Notes under the pieces: model-generated
What the model saw: the letters and a program-made list of their open reading frames with translations, nothing else
What the model was told of the DNA's origin: nothing
Database searches by the model: none
Part shown: in pieces, positions 2,320 through 43,501 of the stretch
Layout: every line of letters begins with the position of its first letter
Numbering within the stretch: position 1 is the stretch's first letter
Program-made: the position numbers and the translations under genes
Assembly: GCF_041886205.1 (NCBI RefSeq)
Contig: NZ_CP169029.1
Strand: one strand, 5' to 3'
Source: Escherichia coli
Lineage (GTDB): Bacteria; Pseudomonadota; Gammaproteobacteria; Enterobacterales; Enterobacteriaceae
DNA: 64,000 nucleotides

Positions 2320-3650
2320 CACGCCAGTTTCAGATCCCGGGTCATGTTTTCCACGTTGTTTTCGTGGATCACCACGTTGTCTTCGATACGAATGCCGCCG
2401 AACGGTTTCAGTGCTTCAATTTTCTGCCAGTTGAAGTGCTTGCTGAACTGCCCTTCACGCCACGGTGCCAGTAGCGATTCAATGAAGTAGATACCCGGTT
2501 CGATGGTTAACACCATGCCCGGCTGGAGAATACGGGTGCAGCGCAGGTACGGATATTTTGCCGGTGCCGCGAGGTGTGTACCGCTATCATCCTGCATAAA
2601 ACCGGCTACGTCATGCACCTGCAGGCCCAGCGGATGACCGATACCATGCGGCATAAACGGTCCGGTGAGATTGTTTTCGACCATCGCTTCTTCACTCATA
2701 TCGGTGATGATTTGATGTTTACGCAGCAATTTGGCGATACGCTGATGGAACTGGATGTGGTAATCCACATAGCTGACGCCAGCTTTCATGGTGGCGATCA
2801 GCGCAAGTTGTTCATCATTTACGTCTTTCACCAGCTGTGCGTAGTCGTTGTCGCTTTTTGCCGACCAGGTACGGGTCAGGTCAGCCGCATAGCCGTTATA
2901 TTCGGTCCCGGCATCCAGCAGGAAGCTGCGCATCTCTTCCGGCGCCTGATGATCCAGTTTGGTGTAATGCAGCACCGCAGCGTGTTCGTTGAGCGCCACA
3001 ATGTTGCTGTAAGGCACGTCGGTATCACGATGACCGGTCGCGGTCAGATAGGCAATGTTGATATCGAACTCGCTCATGCCAGAACGGAACGCTTCTTCTG
3101 CCGCGCGATGACCGTTGACCGCCATTTTCTGCGCTTCACGCATACAGGCCAGTTCGTACTCGGTTTTGAAGGAGCGATAGTAATGCAGGTAGTCGATCAC
3201 CCCTTTCGGGTTGATGTTGCTGGCCTCAATACCCAGTTGCAGCGCACGTTCCGGCACCGGACCGATATAACCGATATTGCCGCGCGCAGCAGGCAGCAGG
3301 CTACCAATGCCATCGGCTTTCGGCAGCGCGATCACTTCCACATCTTCAGTCCAGAAGGAGGTCGGCAGCGGTTCGACGTTGTGCCAGTAATCAACCGGCA
3401 GATAGAACCACAGTTTCGGCTTATTCACGCCATCCACCAGCAACCAGCAGTTTGGTACCTGAGTTACCGGCACCCACGCTTTGAATTGCGGGTTCACTTT
3501 AAACGGATAGGGATGATCGTCGAGAAAAACGTTGAACAGTTCGCCGGAGTGAATAAGTAACGCATCCAGCTTGAAGCGCGTCAGCGCATCGCGAGTCCGT
3601 TCCTGCAATGTAGCTATATGATTTTTATAGAGCGAGGCCAGTGATTCCAT
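2319..3650 (-). CDS. pepQ: Xaa-Pro dipeptidase (prolidase) PepQ
   Basis: 443-aa [22 protein letters not shown]...; M24-type metallopeptidase; divergent from fadB. Confidence 0.95.
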
Positions 3651-3797
3651 TTTTTACCCTTCTGTTTTTTTGACCTTAAGTCTCCGCATCTTAGCACATC
3701 GTTCATCCAGAGCGTGATTTCTGCCGAGCGTGATCAGATCGGCATTTCTTTAATCTTTTATTTGCATATTTTTAACACAAAATACACACTTCGATGC

Positions 3798-3814
3798 ATC
3801 TGGTACGACCAGAT
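3798..3814. promoter_or_regulatory. FadR operator in the fadBA promoter
   Basis: Palindromic ATCTGGTACGACCAGAT, 26 bp upstream of the fadB start; matches the known FadR box of fadB. Confidence 0.8.
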
Positions 3815-3839
3815 CACCTTGCGGATTCAGGAGACTGAC

Positions 3840-6029
3840 ATGCTTTACAAAGGCGACACCCTGTACCTTGACTGGCTGGAAGATGGCATTGCCGAACTGG
3901 TATTTGATGCCCCAGGTTCAGTTAATAAACTCGACACTGCGACCGTCGCCAGCCTTGGCGAGGCCATCGGCGTGCTGGAACAGCAATCAGATCTAAAAGG
4001 GCTGCTACTGCGTTCGAACAAAGCAGCCTTTATCGTCGGTGCTGATATCACCGAATTTTTGTCCCTGTTCCTCGTTCCTGAAGAACAGTTAAGTCAGTGG
4101 CTGCACTTTGCCAATAGCGTGTTTAATCGCCTGGAAGATCTGCCGGTGCCGACCATTGCTGCCGTCAACAGCTATGCGCTGGGCGGTGGCTGCGAATGCG
4201 TGCTGGCGACCGATTATCGTCTGGCGACGCCGGATCTGCGCATCGGTCTGCCGGAAACCAAACTGGGCATCATGCCGGGCTTTGGCGGTTCTGTACGTAT
4301 GCCACGTATGCTGGGCGCTGACAGTGCGCTGGAAATCATTGCCGCCGGTAAAGATGTCGGCGCGGATCAGGCGCTGAAAATCGGTCTGGTGGATGGGGTA
4401 GTCAAAGCAGAAAAACTGGTTGAAGGGGCGATGGCGATTTTACGCCAGGCCATTAACGGCGACCTCGACTGGAAAGCAAAACGTCAGCCGAAGCTGGAAC
4501 CGCTAAAACTGAGCAAGATTGAAGCCACCATGAGCTTCACCATCGCTAAAGGGATGGTCGCACAAACGGCGGGGAAACATTATCCGGCCCCCATCACCGC
4601 AGTAAAAACCATTGAAGCTGCGGCCCGTTTTGGTCGTGAAGAAGCCTTAAATCTGGAAAACAAAAGTTTTGTCCCGCTGGCACATACCAACGAAGCCCGC
4701 GCACTGGTCGGCATTTTCCTTAATGATCAATATGTAAAAGGCAAAGCGAAGAAACTCACCAAAGACGTTGAAACACCGAAACAGGCCGCTGTACTGGGCG
4801 CAGGCATTATGGGCGGCGGTATCGCTTACCAGTCTGCGTGGAAAGGCGTGCCGGTTGTCATGAAAGATATCAACGACAAGTCGTTAGCCCTCGGCATGAC
4901 TGAAGCCGCGAAACTACTGAACAAGCAGCTTGAGCGCGGCAAGATCGATGGTCTGAAACTGGCTGGCGTGATCTCCACGATCCACCCAACGCTCGACTAC
5001 GCCGGATTTGACCGCGTGGATGTTGTGGTAGAAGCGGTTGTCGAAAACCCGAAAGTGAAAAAAGCCGTACTGGCAGAAACCGAGCAGAAAGTACGCCCGG
5101 ATACCGTGCTGGCGTCTAACACTTCAACCATTCCTATCAGCGAACTGGCCAACGCGCTGGAACGTCCGGAAAACTTCTGCGGGATGCACTTCTTTAACCC
5201 GGTCCACCGAATGCCGTTGGTGGAAATTATTCGCGGCGAGAAAAGCTCCGACGAAACCATCGCGAAAGTCGTCGCCTGGGCGAGCAAGATGGGCAAAACG
5301 CCGATTGTGGTTAACGACTGCCCCGGCTTCTTCGTCAACCGCGTGCTGTTCCCGTATTTCGCCGGTTTCAGCCAGTTGCTGCGCGACGGCGCGGATTTCC
5401 GCAAGATCGACAAAGTGATGGAAAAACAGTTTGGCTGGCCGATGGGTCCGGCATATCTGCTGGATGTCGTGGGCATTGATACCGCGCATCACGCTCAGGC
5501 TGTCATGGCAGCAGGCTTCCCGCAGCGGATGCAGAAAGATTATCGCGATGCCATCGACGCGCTGTTTGATGCCAACCGCTTTGGTCAGAAGAACGGCCTC
5601 GGTTTCTGGCATTATAAAGAAGACAGCAAAGGTAAGCCGAAGAAAGAAGAAGACGCCGCTGTTGACGACCTGCTGGCAGAAGTGAGCCAGCCGAAGCGCG
5701 ATTTCAGCGAAGAAGAGATTATCGCCCGCATGATGATCCCGATGGTCAACGAAGTGGTCCGCTGTCTGGAAGAGGGCATTATCGCCACTCCGGCGGAAGC
5801 GGATATGGCGCTGGTCTACGGCCTGGGCTTCCCTCCGTTCCACGGCGGCGCGTTCCGCTGGCTGGACACCCTCGGTAGCGCAAAATACCTCGATATGGCA
5901 CAGCAATATCAGCACCTCGGCCCGCTGTATGAAGTGCCGGAAGGTCTGCGTAATAAAGCGCGTCATAACGAACCGTACTATCCTCCGGTTGAGCCAGCCC
6001 GTCCGGTTGGCGACCTGAAAACGGCTTAA
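3840..6029 (+). CDS. fadB: Fatty-acid oxidation complex alpha subunit (enoyl-CoA hydratase / 3-hydroxyacyl-CoA dehydrogenase) FadB
   Basis: 729-aa product from [22 protein letters not shown]...; the ORF-track start at 3714 is an upstream in-frame extension. Confidence 0.95.
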
Positions 6030-7202
<1,173 letters not shown>

Positions 7203-15857: not shown

Positions 15858-15951
15858 CTCAATGCCTGCTCATCAAAAAATTGTTCCAGAAGTGTAACAG
15901 ATTGGGCGTCGATGCCCTAGATTTCTACCCGGCTTAACTACCCCCAATGGG

Positions 15952-17379
15952 CTAGCGCGACTGCTGATTATATTCATCATCGCGTTGATAAGCTTCATCA
16001 TTCGGCTGCTCCGGAACCGACCGAAGTCGATACTCTTCATCCTGGCTCACCGCCTGTTCAGCCAAATCCGGATTAATCTCGCGTTTTATTTCTACTCCTA
16101 AACCGCGAAACGCTTCTGCCTGCGCCAGCACATTTCCGCGCCCTGAAGAGAGTTTTTTCATTGCCTGCCGATAGTTATCCTGCGCTTTGTCGAGACTTTG
16201 ACCAATCGCGGACATGTCATCGATGAACAAACGCATCTTGTCGTACAGCTTGCTGGCACGATCGGCGATTTGCTGGGCGTTGCGGCTTTGATGCTCATAA
16301 CGCCACAGGTTGGCGATAGTGCGCAGCGCCACCAGCAGCGTAGTCGGGCTAACCAGCATGATATTGTTTTTCAACGCTTCGGTGATCAGCTCCGGCTGGC
16401 GGTCAAGCGCCAGTAAAAAAGCGGGTTCAACGGGAATAAACATCAGCACGTAATCCAGGGTTCGCAGCCCCGGCAGTTGTTGATAATCTTTGCGTCCCAG
16501 CAAACGGATATGGTTACGCACCGACGCGATATGTTCCTGTAGCGCGCTTTCGCGGGTGTAGTCGTCTTCGGCGTTAAAATAGCGTTCATAGGCGACCAGC
16601 GTCATTTTGGCGTCGATCACCACATCTTTTCCCTGCGGCAGCCGCACGATGACATCCGGCTGCATCCGCGAGCGGGCGTCATTTTCGATGCTGACCTGGG
16701 TTTCATATTCATACCCTTCACGCAGACCGGAAGCCTCCAGCACCCGCGTCAATACTACCTCGCCCCAGTTGCCCTGGGTTTTATTGTCGCCTTTCAGCGC
16801 GCGCGTCAGGTTGATCGCTTCCTGGGCCATTTGCGCATTGAGCTGCTGGAGATTGCGAATTTCGTGGGTCAGGGTATGGCGTTCTTGTGCTTCTTTACCG
16901 AAGCTGTCCTGAACCTGACGGCGGAAACCGTCCAGTTGTTCACGTAGCGGCGACAACAGGCTGTTCAGACTCTGACGGTTTTGCTCATCAACCCGGCGAT
17001 TGCTGTGCTCAAAAATACGGTTGGCGAGGTTTTCAAACTGCTCACTGAGGCGCTGCTCGCTGTTAATCATCTGGCGAATTTTATCGTCAGCATGTTGCTG
17101 TGCGGCTTCCATCCGCGTGGTTACTTCACGCAGATCGGCCTCCAGAGAGGTGTTAATACTTTGCAGGCTGCGCACTTCGTTATTGAGTAACTCGCACTCT
17201 GCACGCCAGTGCTCGCTTTGGGTAATTTGTTGTTTTGCCGCGCTTAACTCCGCGACCATCTCTTCACGTTCAGCTAATTGCTCGGCTTTTTGCTGCGCAT
17301 GTTGATAACTGGCAAACAGCCAGCCAATTGCCACACCCACCAACGCAATAACTGCGTAAACCATGATTGAGAAATCCAC
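15952..17379 (-). CDS. rmuC: DNA recombination protein RmuC
   Basis: 475-aa ORF with N-terminal TM segment and long coiled-coil region; synteny between ubiE and udp. Confidence 0.92.
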   Translation of the reverse strand: MDFSIMVYAVIALVGVAIGWLFASYQHAQQKAEQLAEREEMVAELSAAKQQITQSEHWRAECELLNNEVRSLQSINTSLEADLREVTTRMEAAQQHADDKIRQMINSEQRLSEQFENLANRIFEHSNRRVDEQNRQSLNSLLSPLREQLDGFRRQVQDSFGKEAQERHTLTHEIRNLQQLNAQMAQEAINLTRALKGDNKTQGNWGEVVLTRVLEASGLREGYEYETQVSIENDARSRMQPDVIVRLPQGKDVVIDAKMTLVAYERYFNAEDDYTRESALQEHIASVRNHIRLLGRKDYQQLPGLRTLDYVLMFIPVEPAFLLALDRQPELITEALKNNIMLVSPTTLLVALRTIANLWRYEHQSRNAQQIADRASKLYDKMRLFIDDMSAIGQSLDKAQDNYRQAMKKLSSGRGNVLAQAEAFRGLGVEIKREINPDLAEQAVSQDEEYRLRSVPEQPNDEAYQRDDEYNQQSR

Positions 17380-17470
17380 AACGCCTCCTGACGCAACAAC
17401 TTACCCGCACAAAATAGAATTGTGCTGTACAAACGTCCAGTTGGAAAGGCATTTCCTGCGAGGCGCTACG

Positions 17471-21776: not shown

Positions 21777-22730
21777 ATGATCGAAGTAAAACACCTGAAA
21801 ACGCTACAAGCGTTGCGGAACTGCGGCTCTCTCGCAGCCGCTGCGGCGACGTTGCATCAGACGCAATCCGCCCTGTCTCACCAGTTTAGCGATCTGGAAC
21901 AACGCCTTGGCTTCCGGCTATTTGTGCGTAAGAGCCAGCCGCTACGCTTTACACCGCAGGGAGAAATCCTGTTGCAACTGGCAAACCAGGTGCTGCCGCA
22001 AATCAGCCAGGCACTGCAAGCCTGCAATGAACCGCAGCAGACGCGTCTGCGCATTGCCATTGAGTGCCATAGCTGTATTCAGTGGCTGACGCCCGCGTTA
22101 GAAAATTTCCATAAGAACTGGCCGCAGGTAGAGATGGATTTTAAATCGGGCGTGACGTTTGACCCGCAGCCTGCGTTGCAACAGGGCGAGCTGGATCTGG
22201 TGATGACCTCCGATATCCTGCCGCGCAGTGGCCTGCATTATTCGCCGATGTTCGATTATGAAGTACGCCTGGTGTTAGCGCCTGACCATCCACTGGCGGC
22301 AAAAACGCGTATTACACCGGAAGATCTCGCCAGCGAGACGCTATTAATTTATCCGGTGCAGCGTAGTCGACTGGATGTCTGGCGGCATTTTCTTCAGCCG
22401 GCAGGCGTCAGCCCGTCACTGAAAAGCGTCGATAACACCTTATTGTTGATTCAGATGGTTGCCGCGCGGATGGGTATTGCCGCGCTACCGCATTGGGTAG
22501 TAGAGAGTTTTGAGCGCCAGGGTCTGGTGGTCACCAAAACCCTGGGCGAAGGCTTGTGGAGCCGACTGTACGCCGCCGTGCGCGATGGCGAGCAGCGTCA
22601 GCCGATTACAGAAGCATTTATTCGCTCAGCGCGCAATCACGCCTGCGATCATCTGCCGTTTGTGAAGAGCGCGGAGCGACCCACTTACGATGCACCCACA
22701 GTGAGGCCAGGATCACCAGCGCGCCTGTAA
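21777..22730 (+). CDS. metR: LysR-family transcriptional activator MetR
   Basis: 317-aa [44 protein letters not shown]... with HTH; divergent from metE. Confidence 0.95.
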
Positions 22731-23517
22731 TAAACGTTGGCCAGTGCGGCTGTTGGTGCCAGATAGCCAGGTTAACCAGCAGCCCTGCCGGAACGTGCAT
22801 ATTATTCATAATGCCCAGCGTTCCGGCGTCCACCTGCGTCGCGCCGTAGTTCCACATAAAGTAGCCAATCCCGGAAGCCACCACGCCAAGAAACACCAGA
22901 ATGCCCCATTGCAGCGTGGTTTGCGGCATTTTCTGCGCATTTCCCAGCAAGAACCATGCAATTACCGCCACCAGGAACGCGCCAAGATAGAACCACGCAA
23001 AGGCGTTATGCTGCGGCATCGGGCGAGTTTCCATCAGGCGTTTGTAACCCACCATGCCGATGGCAAAAGTGATATTGGAGAGTTGCACCAGCAACAAGCC
23101 AGTCCAGAAATGGTCGGTGACCTGATCATAGCGAATAATCCCGGCACCAATCACCGCCAACAAGGCACTAAAAGCATATCCCCAGCGCAGACGGCGCTTA
23201 CTCATGATGTCATAAATCAGCGTGATGTAGAGCGGCGTCAGTACGGTGAACAACAGCAGTTCGGAGACCGTCAGGTAGAGATAGGCGCGGAAACTCAGCA
23301 TATACATCACGCCAAGCTGCATCGCGCCCACCAGCATATACAGGCCGACTGTTTTCAGGCTATTGCCACGGGTACGCAGAAACGGCAGAAAAACGAGCGC
23401 CGCCAGGCCAACTCGCACCAGCACCGCAAAATAGCTATCGACGTGCCCCGCAAGGTACTCGCCATAAAAGCTAAAGGAGAAGGCCCACAGAATCGTGGTG
23501 ATGATAAGTAGCGCCAC
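22618..23517 (-). CDS. yigM: EamA/DMT-family membrane transporter YigM (BioP)
   Basis: 299-aa [20 protein letters not shown]..., about 10 TM segments; its 3' end overlaps the metR 3' end by 113 nt (convergent). Confidence 0.9.
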
Positions 23518-23608
23518 ACTGGAAAACTCTTTGATTAACGAGTATCCATTGTAGCGAAGTATCAGGTTGACAACTGTTTAATGTTTGCTCAATCGTGTGC
23601 GTTTTTAC

Positions 23609-23941
23609 TCATCGTCCAACGTTACCCGCTGCAACGAAAAGTAGTTGATTAATAATGGATTCACGCGCGCTCTCCACGCTCAGATTCCAGTACTTGGTGT
23701 CGAGAGCCAGTTTCATAAAAGGCGCGTGCCAGTCTTGTTCTCTTTTTTCAAAAACCACTTCAGCGACTTTATAGCCCGTCCAGCTACGATACAAATGCAA
23801 AACGTTATTCTCAAAATAGATAAACCATTTGTATTCCATCGCTGGAGGAATAAACCCCATTTCCAGATTACGCATTTGCGCTTCATCTAACGTCAAATTA
23901 AGCTCAACCCTCTGCCAGTCAACGGTAAATGCTTTGAGGTT
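23609..23941 (-). CDS. Candidate small protein of unknown function (110 aa) between yigL and yigM
   Basis: ORF from ATG 23939..23941 (MTKATKQSWHNLKAFTVDWQRVELNLTLDEAQMRNLEMGF...) with AGGGA about 9 nt upstream; fits exactly in the gap between the yigL terminator hairpin and the yigM start; no family recognised. Confidence 0.35.
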   Translation of the reverse strand, partial: NLKAFTVDWQRVELNLTLDEAQMRNLEMGFIPPAMEYKWFIYFENNVLHLYRSWTGYKVAEVVFEKREQDWHAPFMKLALDTKYWNLSVESARESIINQLLFVAAGNVGR

Positions 23942-24035
23942 ATGCCAGCTTTGCTTCGTCGCTTTTGTCATGCGTATTCCCTGCCTGGTTTTTAAGTGCT
24001 CTCCCGCAATCAACGTAATGCGGGAGAGGCTGGCA

Positions 24036-24836
24036 TTAACTGAGATAGAGTTTACGCAGATAATGCGGTACCGCGTCGTCGGCATTAGTACCAATCACTT
24101 CCAGCTCTGGATGCAGATCTTTCAGCCGTTGATGCGCGCTGCCCATAATGCAGCCTTTCCCCGCCATCGACAGCATTTCGGCGTCGTTCATCCCGTCACC
24201 AAAGGCAATACAATCCTTCAGGCTGTAGCCCAGTTTCTTCGCCACCGCTTCCAGCGCATGGCCTTTCGACACGCCGCCCGCCATCACTTCCAGACAGGTT
24301 AAGGTAGAGAAACTGACGTTGACGCGATCGCCCCAGCGAGCGTTAATCGCCTGCTCCAGCGGCAGCAGTTGTTCATGGGAATCGCAGGTGAAGAACACTT
24401 TGCTGACGCCTTCCGGCTCCAGTAATCCAGGCTCATACAGCGCATATTTGAACACCGCTTCTTTAAAAAAGCGCATCTCTTCCGGGCGATGGCGATTCAT
24501 AAACCATTCGTCGTCGCGATAAACGTTAGTAATGATGTCCGGATTGTCGTTGACCACACCAAACAGATCGCTGGCAATGTCGCGATCCAGGTTATGAGCA
24601 AAAATCAGATTACCATCCAGATCGTGAACGCGCGCGCCATTGGAGGTAATCATGTAAGACTTGATCTCCAGATTATCGCGAATTTGCCCCACATCGACGT
24701 GATGGCGACCAGTCGCAAACACAAAGTTGATACCGCGCGCGGTAAGCAGCTTCAGAGTTTCTTTGGCGTAAGGAGATAACGTATGGTCGGGAGAAAGTAA
24801 CGTGCCATCTAAATCAGACGCAACAACCTGGTACAT
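24036..24836 (-). CDS. yigL: HAD-superfamily (Cof-like) sugar-phosphate phosphatase YigL
   Basis: 266-aa product from MYQVVASDLDGTLLSPDHTL... with HAD motif DxDGT; the ORF-track start at 24962 is an upstream extension into pldB. Confidence 0.93.
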   Translation of the reverse strand: MYQVVASDLDGTLLSPDHTLSPYAKETLKLLTARGINFVFATGRHHVDVGQIRDNLEIKSYMITSNGARVHDLDGNLIFAHNLDRDIASDLFGVVNDNPDIITNVYRDDEWFMNRHRPEEMRFFKEAVFKYALYEPGLLEPEGVSKVFFTCDSHEQLLPLEQAINARWGDRVNVSFSTLTCLEVMAGGVSKGHALEAVAKKLGYSLKDCIAFGDGMNDAEMLSMAGKGCIMGSAHQRLKDLHPELEVIGTNADDAVPHYLRKLYLS

Positions 24837-40515: not shown

Positions 40516-40703
40516 TATGGATTGCCTGTAAAGTTCATCGCTTTCTGCTTTCTATCATCGCAGGAGAAGGCGTAAAAGCAAGCGTTTAGCGACTCTTTAT
40601 GAAGTCTGAAAAGTGAGGAAATGCTGCGAGTATAACGCTTACTCGTGGGGATTTATGTTTTGCTGGTAGTTTCGTGATCGGCACCTCGCGCCAGGATGGC
40701 TTT

Positions 40704-42182
40704 ATGCACTATCGCAATGTGGTTTGTTTGTTGTCTTGTTCGTTGTTTTTATCGTCGGCATGGGGATGTCGGCTTGATGAGCCGGAACATAATATTTACC
40801 AGAAACAGGGAAAAGGCGTGGTGTACCTGCGCCCTTATAAAGAAACAAATCTTTCTCTACCTGACGTGAATTACAAGAGTTTGCGTCGTTTACCTAATTT
40901 ATTAATAGACGCAACAACACAAGATGAATGGAATAAAGAACCACCTCTGACTGATCTAACAACTGACAACCTCTATGAGGGCGCACAAGCCTGGTATCCC
41001 CATTACTCCTGGCATAGCGATGGTCGCTATATCCTCTACGCGGGTGAAGTAGTGCAAAATCCTCACGACGCACCACCCGTCGATATCGCCTCATTCAAGG
41101 CATGGGGAGATTTTGCCGCAGATAAACACAGTCTCTATTTTGAAGGCAAGCGCACCGATAACAATGGCGGGGGAAATCGCTTAGATATCAAAACACTGCA
41201 TCAGGTGGAATTCCGGCCTCCCTGGGATCCTGACTTACTGGGGCTGATATTACGTGACGCTAATTTCTTGTATATCAATGGGCATCGCCTCGCAGATCCC
41301 GATAGTTTCCGTGTGCTGGCACAAAAGTCATGGGATCAACGAGGAAAGTTTTCTACCGCGTTTAATCCCTGTGTGGCTATGCCATTTGGCCCATGGGATA
41401 CCCTGGCTCGTACACGGACCAAAATCCTGATCAACGGCGAACAGCTTGATGCCGACCCGGACACTTTTTCCGTCGTGCGCTGGATGCCCGGCTCACTCTT
41501 GACCTGGCGTGATAAAAACGGGCTGCAGCGTAAAGTCCTCGACAAGGAAAATCTGGCGTGGGATGAGGATTTAACAAAGCACTGTCTGGATTTTTCTCTG
41601 CTGGAAAAGAAAGTGTTCTGGCGTCGGGGGCCTGACTGTAAACAGGAAGAATTACCGGGACTCGATCCGGAACAGTTTCACCCCATCAGTGATGCTGTCG
41701 CACAGTATCAGGACTCGCTTTATACCATCATCGAAACAGAGTCTGGTGACCGCAAGCTGGAGATCGTGAAACTTGATGATCCTAATCTTATTATCAACAA
41801 ACGTTTCAACGCCGGGAAACGCCACGGCTATTTACTTACGCGTGCCGAAGGGTGGCCAAACCATTCCGGTTTACACGTGTTTGAATCTGATGGACCGCTG
41901 ATCTTACTGGATAACCGCTCTCCGGATGAACGCGAAGCCCATCTTAATGACCATCCCTTTTTGCGCAGATGGTATGCCCGCGATAACCGCTACGTTTACA
42001 GCTTTGATGGCGCGCAGCTCTGGCGATACCGCACCGCGGATCCGAAACAAGTTCGCTTAATCTGGAAGGAACAACATTCGGGATATGGCTATGGCGTAAA
42101 TTACAAAACGGGATATCTGGACGGAAAAATTACCGATGACGGCGAATTTATTCCTGCCCCGCGCAATGAGGCGACAAAATGA
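40704..42182 (+). CDS. Exported repeat protein with DKNYY-like motifs, function unknown (paralog 1 of a tandem pair)
   Basis: 492-aa ORF from ATG 40704 with AGGA 5 nt upstream (in-frame GTG at 40674); N-terminal hydrophobic signal MHYRNVVCLLSCSLFLSSAWGC; repeated D-x-x-SF...DK-x-x-LY-[FY]-x-G-K motifs such as VDIASFKAWGDFAADKHSLYFEGKR; not matched to any K-12 protein I recall. Confidence 0.75.
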   Translation: MHYRNVVCLLSCSLFLSSAWGCRLDEPEHNIYQKQGKGVVYLRPYKETNLSLPDVNYKSLRRLPNLLIDATTQDEWNKEPPLTDLTTDNLYEGAQAWYPHYSWHSDGRYILYAGEVVQNPHDAPPVDIASFKAWGDFAADKHSLYFEGKRTDNNGGGNRLDIKTLHQVEFRPPWDPDLLGLILRDANFLYINGHRLADPDSFRVLAQKSWDQRGKFSTAFNPCVAMPFGPWDTLARTRTKILINGEQLDADPDTFSVVRWMPGSLLTWRDKNGLQRKVLDKENLAWDEDLTKHCLDFSLLEKKVFWRRGPDCKQEELPGLDPEQFHPISDAVAQYQDSLYTIIETESGDRKLEIVKLDDPNLIINKRFNAGKRHGYLLTRAEGWPNHSGLHVFESDGPLILLDNRSPDEREAHLNDHPFLRRWYARDNRYVYSFDGAQLWRYRTADPKQVRLIWKEQHSGYGYGVNYKTGYLDGKITDDGEFIPAPRNEATK

Positions 42183-43501
42183 ATGGTCAAATAATCACTG
42201 TTGCACTCATCCTGTTGGGGCACATATTTCTGACGCCTGCTGTACAGGCCATAGGGTTCGACTATTACAATGATCACGGTGTTATGTCTTACGGTAAAGG
42301 TTATGGGGAGGATGAGAAAATCATTGCCCAATTTCCGAAGATGAACAGAGCCGATTTGCGCCTTGTGACAAATATATCCGGGGAGCGGGAGTTGGTGGAA
42401 GGCTATATACCCACCGATGAAATAAGCATAAAAAATGAGGAATACCACTGGGTGACAGACGGCCGCGTTATTCTCTGGCGTGGCAAAATCGTTAGCAATC
42501 CACCGGGAACACCCACTGTCGATATTGCCAGCTTTCAGGCTATGGGCCGCTTCGCGGTCGATAAATATAGCCTCTATTTTGACGGACAGCGCACCGAAAG
42601 TAATAGCGGCGCGTCACGTGTTGATCTGGCGACACTAAAAGCTATCGAAGGTAACTCTACCACGCTGGTGGATAGTAAAAATCTCTATTTGTCCGGTCGA
42701 CGTCAGGGGAGCAGCAGTAATGTTACTGTATTAGAAAAAAGATGGTGGGGTATTAATCCACGTCTTATGAGTGTAAACAGAAATTTGTATTCCAATGATC
42801 TGCTTATCCGCAGTGGGCAGAATATTTATTTAAATGGCGTTCACCTTACGGCGAATGCAGACTCATTTGAGATAATTCGCTGGAGACCTCATTCACTGCT
42901 GGTTTTTCGCGACAATAAGGGTCTGCATCGTTATCCCTTTGGTCAATTATCAGGCAAGGCAATACCCGTAGATGATGACGTCTCTTTTGAAGTAGGGGAA
43001 AGTCGCGTTCGCTGGCGTAAACAGCTCACGTCCGACCGTCAGTGGAGCAAGTGGATAGACCTACCAGGTATTGAACCTGAACAATTCCATCTGATTACTG
43101 GCAATATTGCGCAGTATAAAGATCGTCTGTATGTAACAAAATTATCGACTTTTGGTGAAGACCAGCTTGAAATAATTCTGCTGGATTCGCCAGACCTGGT
43201 CATTGATAACTCATTTAATGGCGGCAAACAACATGTTTACTTTATCCGCCAATTACGGTCAAAGAGCGTGCAAATTATTCCAACTAACGGCCCGCTAATT
43301 AAAAACGATCGCTTCGCTTATGACGATCGCAATGTTTATACATGGACCGATACAGAGGTAAGGATTACGCCCTCCCCCTGCCCGGCGAAAACACACGTCA
43401 GAGAAGAGAATGTGCGTGAACTTCACAACAGAGACATTATTATTCCGTTGACGGATGAATCATGCCAGAACGCAGCAGACGAGCAAACTTTGAAGCCCTG
43501 A
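42179..43501 (+). CDS. Exported repeat protein with DKNYY-like motifs, function unknown (paralog 2 of a tandem pair)
   Basis: 440-aa ORF; ATG overlaps the upstream TGA (ATGA); GAGG about 9 nt upstream; signal peptide MNGQIITVALILLGHIFLTPAVQA; aligns with the upstream ORF (VDIASFQAMGRFAVDKYSLYFDGQR, PGIEPEQFHLITGNIAQYKDRLY). Confidence 0.75.
   Translation: MNGQIITVALILLGHIFLTPAVQAIGFDYYNDHGVMSYGKGYGEDEKIIAQFPKMNRADLRLVTNISGERELVEGYIPTDEISIKNEEYHWVTDGRVILWRGKIVSNPPGTPTVDIASFQAMGRFAVDKYSLYFDGQRTESNSGASRVDLATLKAIEGNSTTLVDSKNLYLSGRRQGSSSNVTVLEKRWWGINPRLMSVNRNLYSNDLLIRSGQNIYLNGVHLTANADSFEIIRWRPHSLLVFRDNKGLHRYPFGQLSGKAIPVDDDVSFEVGESRVRWRKQLTSDRQWSKWIDLPGIEPEQFHLITGNIAQYKDRLYVTKLSTFGEDQLEIILLDSPDLVIDNSFNGGKQHVYFIRQLRSKSVQIIPTNGPLIKNDRFAYDDRNVYTWTDTEVRITPSPCPAKTHVREENVRELHNRDIIIPLTDESCQNAADEQTLKP

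Follow-up and report, generated by a model that had tools for sequence, protein, structure and literature searches.

Does the interval between yigL and bioP (yigM) in this Escherichia coli chromosome hold an overlooked gene, an accessory insert or an open reading frame (ORF) that arose by chance and, if it is a gene, what might its product do? Within the window (the whole stretch of 64,000 nucleotides that was analysed), the chromosomal order is ...metE-metR-bioP(yigM)-X-yigL-pldB-rhtB..., where X is a minus-strand ORF of 120 codons. An earlier note, made from the letters alone, had described an ORF filling the yigL-yigM gap, and positions 23518–24035 do constitute the whole of that gap, which is bounded by the GTG start of bioP at 23517 and the yigL stop codon at 24036–24038. 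The features of the region are listed here in order of position.

22618..23517, minus strand: bioP (yigM), the downstream neighbour (ORF call and annotation).
23518..23576, minus strand: the 59-nt bioP leader, common to both alleles, with the indel boundary directly upstream.
23577..24035, no strand assigned: allele-specific 459-bp segment comprising the hairpin, the ORF and a 32-nt tail (alignment with Nissle and K-12).
23609..23971, minus strand: coding sequence for 120 aa, from ATG 23971..23969 to TGA 23611..23609 (ORF call, translation and PGAP CDS WP_000158817.1).
23978..23982, minus strand: Shine-Dalgarno-like AGGGA (read from the sequence).
23999..24028, minus strand: RNA hairpin with a perfect 10-bp stem and a 10-nt loop, located between the stop codon of yigL and the start of the ORF.
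24036..24836, minus strand: yigL, the upstream neighbour (ORF call and annotation).
24039..24047, minus strand: the last sense codons of yigL, encoding the same residues (..YLS*) as the common allele with different codons.

The peptide and the stop codon (23611..23609) that had been reported for this ORF stand, whereas its start, given as ATG 23939..23941 with a product of 110 aa, has to be moved by 30 nt to ATG 23971..23969, so that the product has 120 aa and the N-terminus MTKATKQSWHNLKAF... We place the start at this codon because the N-termini of the family relatives described below align there. A mechanically called longer ORF of 161 aa, which begins at TTG 24094 within yigL and overlaps that gene, was rejected on the same alignment to Met1. 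Upstream starts are used in some public gene calls of the ORF protein (P0001, P0159). The AGGGA that had been noticed is present and lies 6 nt upstream of the corrected ATG (23982..23978) as a putative Shine-Dalgarno sequence; in the divergent L010 allele, GGTGA is found at a comparable spacing from the start. The segment had also been called more AT-rich than both neighbours, which agrees with the GC contents of 43.8% for the ORF and 44.7% for the insert versus 51.6% for yigL, 55.1% for bioP and 52.4% for the window. No sigma-70 promoter of its own was called for the ORF in a promoter scan, the single promoter-like match on the minus strand falling within the ORF. Downstream, bioP and metR converge, with an overlap of 113 bp between their 3' ends (22618–22730), as they do in K-12.

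The strong hairpin that had been described 3' of yigL does precede the ORF, although its stem is of 10 bp and not 11: the inverted repeat CTCTCCCGCA/TGCGGGAGAG at 23999–24008 and 24019–24028 is perfect over 10 bp. The stem is retained in the centroid fold, and its 81-nt context has a minimum free energy of −23.3 kcal/mol (z = −2.1). It does not look like a Rho-independent terminator, as the stem has no U-tract and is followed by CACUUAAAAACC on the minus strand, and the hairpin at 23999–24028 was not called in a scan for intrinsic terminators. In L010 the stem is preserved and the loop is altered at about half of its positions, and in L013 one C-to-T change in the stem leaves a G-U pair. Since the stem is kept in both allele classes (defined below) while the loop differs, the comparison suggests that the fold of the RNA is of importance, perhaps in stabilising the pldB-yigL message at its 3' end. 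Rfam gave no match to the segment on either strand, and we rejected on that ground the notion that the segment is an RNA element.

The common E. coli allele has 16 bp where the window has 459 bp (23577–24035), a net difference of +443 bp that agrees with 751 versus 308 bp. In K-12 MG1655 and Nissle 1917 the yigL-bioP gap is only 75 bp long and contains no gene, the latter as the earlier note had stated for K-12. On the bioP side, K-12, Nissle, L010 and L022–L027 have the same or almost the same 59-nt leader. On the other side, yigL ends in TAT CTC AGT TAA in the window and in TAT TTA TCG TAA in Nissle; because these terminal codons differ but encode the same residues, the allele boundary lies inside the 3' end of yigL. 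The segment is carried by 8 of the 5,426 complete E. coli genomes, every time at the yigL-bioP site. Of the two suggestions made earlier, that of a small accessory insert was thus sound (459 bp in place of 16 bp, in very few genomes), and that of an unannotated small protein was not, since the NCBI pipeline already calls a hypothetical protein in every carrier (WP_000158817.1, or a shortened form in strain 6EVA). Exact copies of the ORF protein occur on 406 public contigs, each time under the name hypothetical.

Neither terminal inverted repeats nor a target-site duplication were found at 23577/24035, and the segment has no other substantial ORF besides the 120-aa gene. A tblastn search of the ORF protein against 50,697 phage records gave no match, and the plasmid records yielded just six weak, partial matches, all to distant family members. 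A mobile element (insertion sequence, MITE or other) was therefore rejected for want of terminal repeats, target duplication, another substantial ORF or a phage match, and a phage or plasmid origin of the E. coli gene was rejected on the two tblastn searches. The window contains another variable region at 40674–43501 (plus strand), between lptM and cyaY, where two adjacent ORFs of about 492–502 aa and 440 aa are annotated in RefSeq as 'hypothetical protein' or, in other strains, 'DKNYY family protein'; neither has a PADLOC or NCBIfam match. That segment is unevenly present, being complete in 1,394 and partly represented in 4,478 of the 5,426 complete E. coli genomes.

With respect to lineage, the window is identical to strain wlxctx60 in every region compared. 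The eight carriers share 100% identity over their 4.4-kb flanks, where the best non-carriers reach 98.7–99.2%, and at 20–30 kb on either side the carriers are again the best matches, with non-carriers at 97.4–98.3%. Being each other's best matches both in the flanks and at 20–30 kb, the carriers represent a rare and separate lineage of E. coli. We rejected the alternative of an otherwise ordinary strain with a local insertion, as the carriers form a distinct lineage across the whole window. Divergence from K-12 is near zero over pldB and 1.5–6% from yigL through the ORF into bioP, so that the divergent tract has its centre on yigL-ORF-bioP, which speaks for spread by recombination.

The gene is found at the same yigL-bioP site in other Escherichia backgrounds (L010, L013 and L022–L027). 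The L010 copy has 83% amino acid identity to the ORF protein within a locus of ∼ 93% DNA identity over 11 kb, the L022/L023 copy encodes a protein labelled E. fergusonii in NCBI, and those of L025–L027 are named 'MULTISPECIES: Escherichia'. We distinguish allele class A (the window, L013 and L022–L027) from class B (L010). Synonymous divergence (dS) between the window and class B is 0.355 for the ORF, 0.344 for yigL, 0.339 for pldB and 0.416 for rhtB, and these values indicate that the ORF has co-diverged in situ with its neighbours. Among the class A alleles themselves, dS is 0–0.06 for the ORF versus 0.07–0.38 for yigL; as the ORF has the lower values, the segment has moved recently between diverged backgrounds by recombination. 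When L022/L023 (locus 3106–6354) are compared with the window, dS is 0.52 for pldB, 0.07 for yigL, 0.03–0.04 for the ORF and 0.07–0.08 for bioP, a pattern that places a recombination breakpoint between pldB and yigL and implies transfer of a yigL-ORF-bioP block between species-level lineages. A Transposase_31/Rpn-type gene (PF04754) lies between rhtC and rhtB in L022, L023, L026 and L027 (locus 1356–2216) and is absent from the window and from K-12. A scan of species-representative genomes provided no outgroup that would polarise gain versus loss of the gene. On the history that we favour, the gene would long have occupied the yigL-bioP site in the genus Escherichia, spreading between lineages through homologous recombination of its flanks; it would have been lost from almost all E. 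coli and is probably under weak constraint at present. In its population genetics, and with no bearing on mechanism, the segment resembles the orphan-gene indel polymorphisms at E. coli intergenic sites, in that it occupies a fixed position between core genes without signatures of mobility and owes its distribution to lineage and to homologous recombination of the flanks.

Selection on the ORF was assessed from the same alleles. The earlier note had named, as observations that would count against a gene, synonymous-site evolution indistinguishable from that of intergenic DNA and a disrupted frame in close relatives. As to the former, dN/dS of the ORF against the divergent allele is 0.17–0.24; in the comparison of the window with L010 it is 0.24 versus 0.02–0.05 in the neighbouring genes, and the deficit of non-synonymous changes per site in the ORF is significant (Fisher p = 1.5e-5). 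Both allele classes keep an intact frame, at a dS of about 0.35 between them. Frame disruption is confined to a minority of copies and occurred at least twice independently: in strain 6EVA a 13-bp tandem duplication at about codon 11 breaks the frame, and, among the public products, P0004 and P0162 show a frameshift or truncation. Changes segregating within class A comprise 8 non-synonymous and 5 synonymous ones, for which neutrality is not rejected (p = 0.15), and pairwise dN/dS in recent comparisons rises to about 1.5, on small counts. Over the long term, the gene has been kept by purifying selection; its recent evolution, as far as these alleles indicate, is compatible with neutrality, and recent constraint appears weak. 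The lineage of the window differs from all other class A alleles by the clustered non-synonymous changes P92T, E93K and C95W (23687–23698, codons 92–95), which sit in the loop preceding the last helix of the predicted structure and could reflect a small conversion tract or local positive selection.

The protein has no counterpart in the standard collections: the Pfam, NCBIfam, PADLOC and PHROGs profiles include no family for it even at E ≤ 1 (E ≤ 10 for Pfam), PDB sequences gave no match, and none of 74 short relatives matched Pfam, chaperone families included. A word-indexed search with the ORF protein returned just seven relatives, and a scan of 100,044 species-representative genomes found a copy in Aeromonas media and one weak actinobacterial match, with no others. 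Exhaustive profile searching brought up 1,604 representative clusters at E ≤ 1e-3, of which 281 reach E ≤ 1e-10. With profile A5, whose relatives cover positions 1–117, a score of 5.8e-69 was obtained for the Escherichia proteins, and the ORF protein matches a profile built mostly from distant members at E 1e-32. The family is marked by the signature GF[IV]PxxME[DY]KWFxYFE...LxxH/Y-RSWTG in an alpha+beta domain of ∼ 110 aa. In 148 aligned domains, G39, P42, M45, W49, F50, R62, S63, W64, T65 and G66 are 92–99% conserved and W9 is conserved in 90%; the E. coli protein retains W9 and all of the ten, and has Tyr at two less conserved positions where the majority of members have D47 and H61. Homologues in some 1,600 representative clusters, with identities from 95% to about 25%, put the ORF far outside what chance would produce.

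An AF2 model of the ORF protein (pLDDT 90.6, pTM 0.85) has the predicted order strand-helix-four strands-helix. A fold search of AFDB50 gave 305 matches at E ≤ 1e-3, with query-normalised TM scores of 0.75–0.92 for nearly all of the 50 listed. These matches include many uncharacterised proteins of 112–160 aa, modules within NUDIX, ADP-ribosylglycohydrolase, SMI1/KNR4, metallo-beta-lactamase and HNH proteins, and a few eukaryotic proteins (sponge, coral, choanoflagellate and fungus). As modelled, the fold is thus confidently predicted and looks new, with no solved relative among PDB sequences. That the ORF is a chance frame in non-coding accessory DNA, or that function resides in an RNA or a mobile element instead, can be regarded as effectively refuted: the segment is AT-rich and neither a promoter nor a terminator was called for the ORF, but homologues down to about 25% identity, conserved motifs, a confident predicted fold and dN/dS well below 1 all contradict this view, as do the lack of an Rfam match, of terminal repeats and of a target duplication; the homologues, the fold and dN/dS together led us to discard the chance ORF. 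By its sequence and those of its relatives, the ORF is shown to be a real protein-coding gene under selection that is restricted to certain lineages and belongs to a large unnamed domain family. A literature search found no published name for the domain and matched a general survey of NAD/ADP-ribose systems alone.

Stand-alone proteins are the commonest architecture of the family, accounting for 95 of the 168 domain hits counted (proteins of ≤ 170 aa) and for most of the 120 family proteins listed in a second profile search, and the 120-aa product therefore has a usual form for the family and shows no obvious sign of being a fragment; its end coincides exactly with the domain boundary. Outside Escherichia, the closest relatives (45–50% identity) are 320–541 aa long and have an extra domain of ∼ 200 aa, often with a NUDIX domain as well. 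The Aeromonas relative is a single protein of ∼ 320–336 aa in P0008, in the AFDB entry A0AAW9F2U3 and in the L011 ORF, and appears as two overlapping ORFs of 178 and 142 aa in Logan contigs (L004–L009), which suggests a frameshift or an assembly difference in those samples.

These observations bear on whether the Escherichia gene still has a function. It might be a decaying relic, once functional, perhaps as part of a larger protein with an N-domain and a middle domain (with or without NUDIX), as in the closest relatives of the Aeromonas type, and now functionless in the few Escherichia lineages in which it survives. Its presence in merely 8 of 5,426 complete genomes, the disrupted copies (the duplication in 6EVA and the products P0004, P0162 and P0165), segregating class A changes that cannot be told from neutral ones, the multi-domain make-up (320–541 aa) of the closest relatives outside Escherichia and the lack of a partner gene in cis all fit such a fate. 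Set against this are the dN/dS of 0.17–0.24 maintained, with an intact frame in both allele classes, across dS of about 0.35, the retention of every family-invariant residue, a stop codon placed exactly at the domain boundary in a family in which the stand-alone form is the commonest, and the occurrence of the exact protein on 406 contigs, with intact variants in several Escherichia backgrounds. A relic is a serious rival, because no ADP-ribose-related partner lies within about 25 kb and recent constraint is weak, and we nevertheless consider it unlikely.

What the domain does is best approached through the company that it keeps elsewhere. In a census drawn from the best 150 profile matches, NUDIX is found in 24 of the 50 longer family members scanned, a share that may be inflated as the profile was seeded on the NUDIX-fused subfamily. 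The other partners among these 50 are ADP-ribosylglycohydrolase (ARG), Macro, NADAR, PARG_cat_microb, PTP-SAK/Tc-R-P phosphatase and HIRAN, as well as HARE-HTH and RNAP alpha-CTD; the domain is joined to partners at either end, and the independent AFDB list and the second profile search show the same fusion partners.

Gene contexts are similarly suggestive in some relatives and heterogeneous in others. On the Aeromonas plasmid pE31A, the operon WYL regulator - ADP-ribosylglycohydrolase - hypothetical - NUDIX+domain has DUF262 and SNF2 genes after it. Among the NUDIX-fused relatives, the closest one lies between a Type III R-M system, UvrD and a giant sacsin-like protein, and the Aeromonas two-domain relative lies between a MksB-MksE-MksF-DUF7281 cluster and rmuC. 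One stand-alone copy, on a TrfA plasmid, adjoins HicAB and a large helicase; others are found in a phage-/plasmid-like region and next to an AlkZ-like gene. In Lachnospiraceae (L035–L038; L035 3940–5423), the gene for a 140-aa stand-alone member shares 4 nt with the 3' end of a Fic gene. This pair is followed by a CotH kinase-like gene, giving a candidate two- or three-gene module, which, judged by gene order, would tie the domain to AMPylation besides ADP-ribosylation. In the window, rmuC (about 15950–17380) is ∼ 8 kb from the E. coli ORF, and in Aeromonas it lies within two genes of the homologue; this proximity may be a coincidence or a remnant of synteny inherited from a common gammaproteobacterial ancestor. 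No ADP-ribose-related partner gene is present within ∼ 25 kb on either side of the ORF in the window, where the neighbours are pldB, yigL, bioP, metR and metE and no ADP-ribosylglycohydrolase gene with a Nudix- or WYL-type regulator adjoins it.

Because relatives are fused to enzymes that process ADP-ribose and are found in defence islands or WYL-ARG-NUDIX operons, we infer that the domain may serve as a recognition module. It would recognise an adenine-nucleotide adduct or its carrier, that is, ADP-ribose or AMP on a macromolecule or, alternatively, a soluble ADP-ribose derivative or the transferase itself; AMP enters as a possible ligand because translational coupling links one of the stand-alone relatives to a Fic (AMPylating) enzyme. 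The E. coli protein would then be the bare module, a binder or buffer in phage or toxin conflicts, and any partner would act in trans, as none is encoded within ∼ 25 kb. We regard as evenly poised the proposal that the locus carries an accessory gene for such a bare recognition module for adenine-nucleotide adducts or their carriers, and not a missed core gene. Two observations weigh against the recognition module: the neighbours of stand-alone relatives are heterogeneous (AlkZ-like, HicAB/helicase and Fic), and the near-invariant H/Y-R-S-W-T-G and M-E-D-K motifs could mark a catalytic site.

Those motifs are a reason to ask whether the domain has catalytic activity of its own towards a nucleotide derived from ADP-ribose or a related one, which would make the E. 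coli protein a small stand-alone hydrolase or transferase. R62, S63 and T65 are near-invariant, E46, K48 and H61 are 76–80% conserved, all six are in loops or turns, and the domain is found together with enzymes that process ADP-ribose one after the other. We consider this quite improbable for the E. coli protein. A broader formulation, in which the KWF/RSWTG domain is an unrecognised reader or small enzyme for ADP-ribose or AMP adducts, with a fold that has no solved relative, and in which the Escherichia protein is its minimal form, for instance a sponge or sensor that blunts ADP-ribosylation driven by phages or toxins, is put forward as a tentative idea that is rather more likely to be wrong than right.

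The same partner enzymes invite comparison with toxin-antitoxin biology. DarG combines a macrodomain with a DarT-binding domain and Tri1 an ARH with a Tre1-occluding extension, so that both are two-part antitoxins or immunity proteins of ADP-ribosyltransferases (ARTs). Relatives of the E. coli protein likewise join a small non-catalytic module to an enzyme that removes ADP-ribose, but, unlike in DarG and Tri1, no cognate ART lies beside the copies examined, and the sole tightly linked transferase is Fic, in one clade. Accordingly framed as a rival, the domain would be an immunity- or antitoxin-type protein that blocks a nucleotide-transferring toxin (ART or Fic), with the fused hydrolases as a second, enzymatic layer. 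Fusion to ARG, Macro, NADAR and PARG, which are enzyme classes of ART antitoxins and immunity proteins, fusion with a SMI1/KNR4-annotated protein, the stand-alone copy translationally coupled to a Fic gene and copies on plasmids next to TA modules speak for such a role. It conflicts with the absence of an ART or Fic gene adjoining the E. coli, Aeromonas or most other copies examined, with a strict family-wide polar motif where toxin-specific immunity proteins normally diversify, and with the prevalence of NUDIX, the commonest partner and an atypical immunity enzyme. On balance, we find an immunity function improbable.

The proposed recognition module finds its nearest published setting in the ARG-centric systems that counter ADP-ribose, in which TY-Chap1–3 are predicted chaperones (Iyer, Burroughs, Anantharaman and Aravind, 2022; PMC9503650, section 3.8). 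As in those systems, relatives occur in a WYL - ADP-ribosylglycohydrolase - NUDIX operon flanked by defence genes and are fused to ARG, Macro, NADAR, HIRAN and the rhodanese-phosphatase-type domains PTP-SAK/Tc-R-P, the partner set described there (PMC9503650). The E. coli locus differs from these operons in having neither an ARG nor a regulator, a feature seen just in the distant Aeromonas pE31A relative. The predicted five-strand sheet with two helices also bears a superficial likeness to the TY-chaperone fold as described in PMC9503650. Membership in the TY-chaperone/YbjN group was, however, supported by neither profile nor structure comparison: hhalign gave a probability of 0.1% against E. 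coli YbjN, and there was no match to T3SS chaperone or YbjN structures. By analogy, the domain may be likened to the ADP-ribose readers (Macro, WWE and NrtR-type Nudix sensors), whose recognition of ADP-ribose or ADP-ribosylated targets is what is proposed here; like them, it is found both fused to enzymes of ADP-ribose metabolism and alone.

For the genomics of E. coli, the finding is a minor one, namely a rare, already annotated hypothetical gene that K-12 lacks, and no core gene has been missed. The locus also illustrates neatly how an accessory gene can persist and move solely via homologous recombination at a fixed site of the core genome. The family level is more useful, as it defines a domain of ∼ 110 aa with ∼ 1,600 clusters and strict motifs for which we found no Pfam entry, solved structure or published name. 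If the domain binds ADP-ribose adducts, it would be a new reader or adaptor in the toolkit of NAD/ADP-ribose conflicts, and the stand-alone Escherichia protein would then offer a convenient, genetically tractable model for biochemistry and phage assays.
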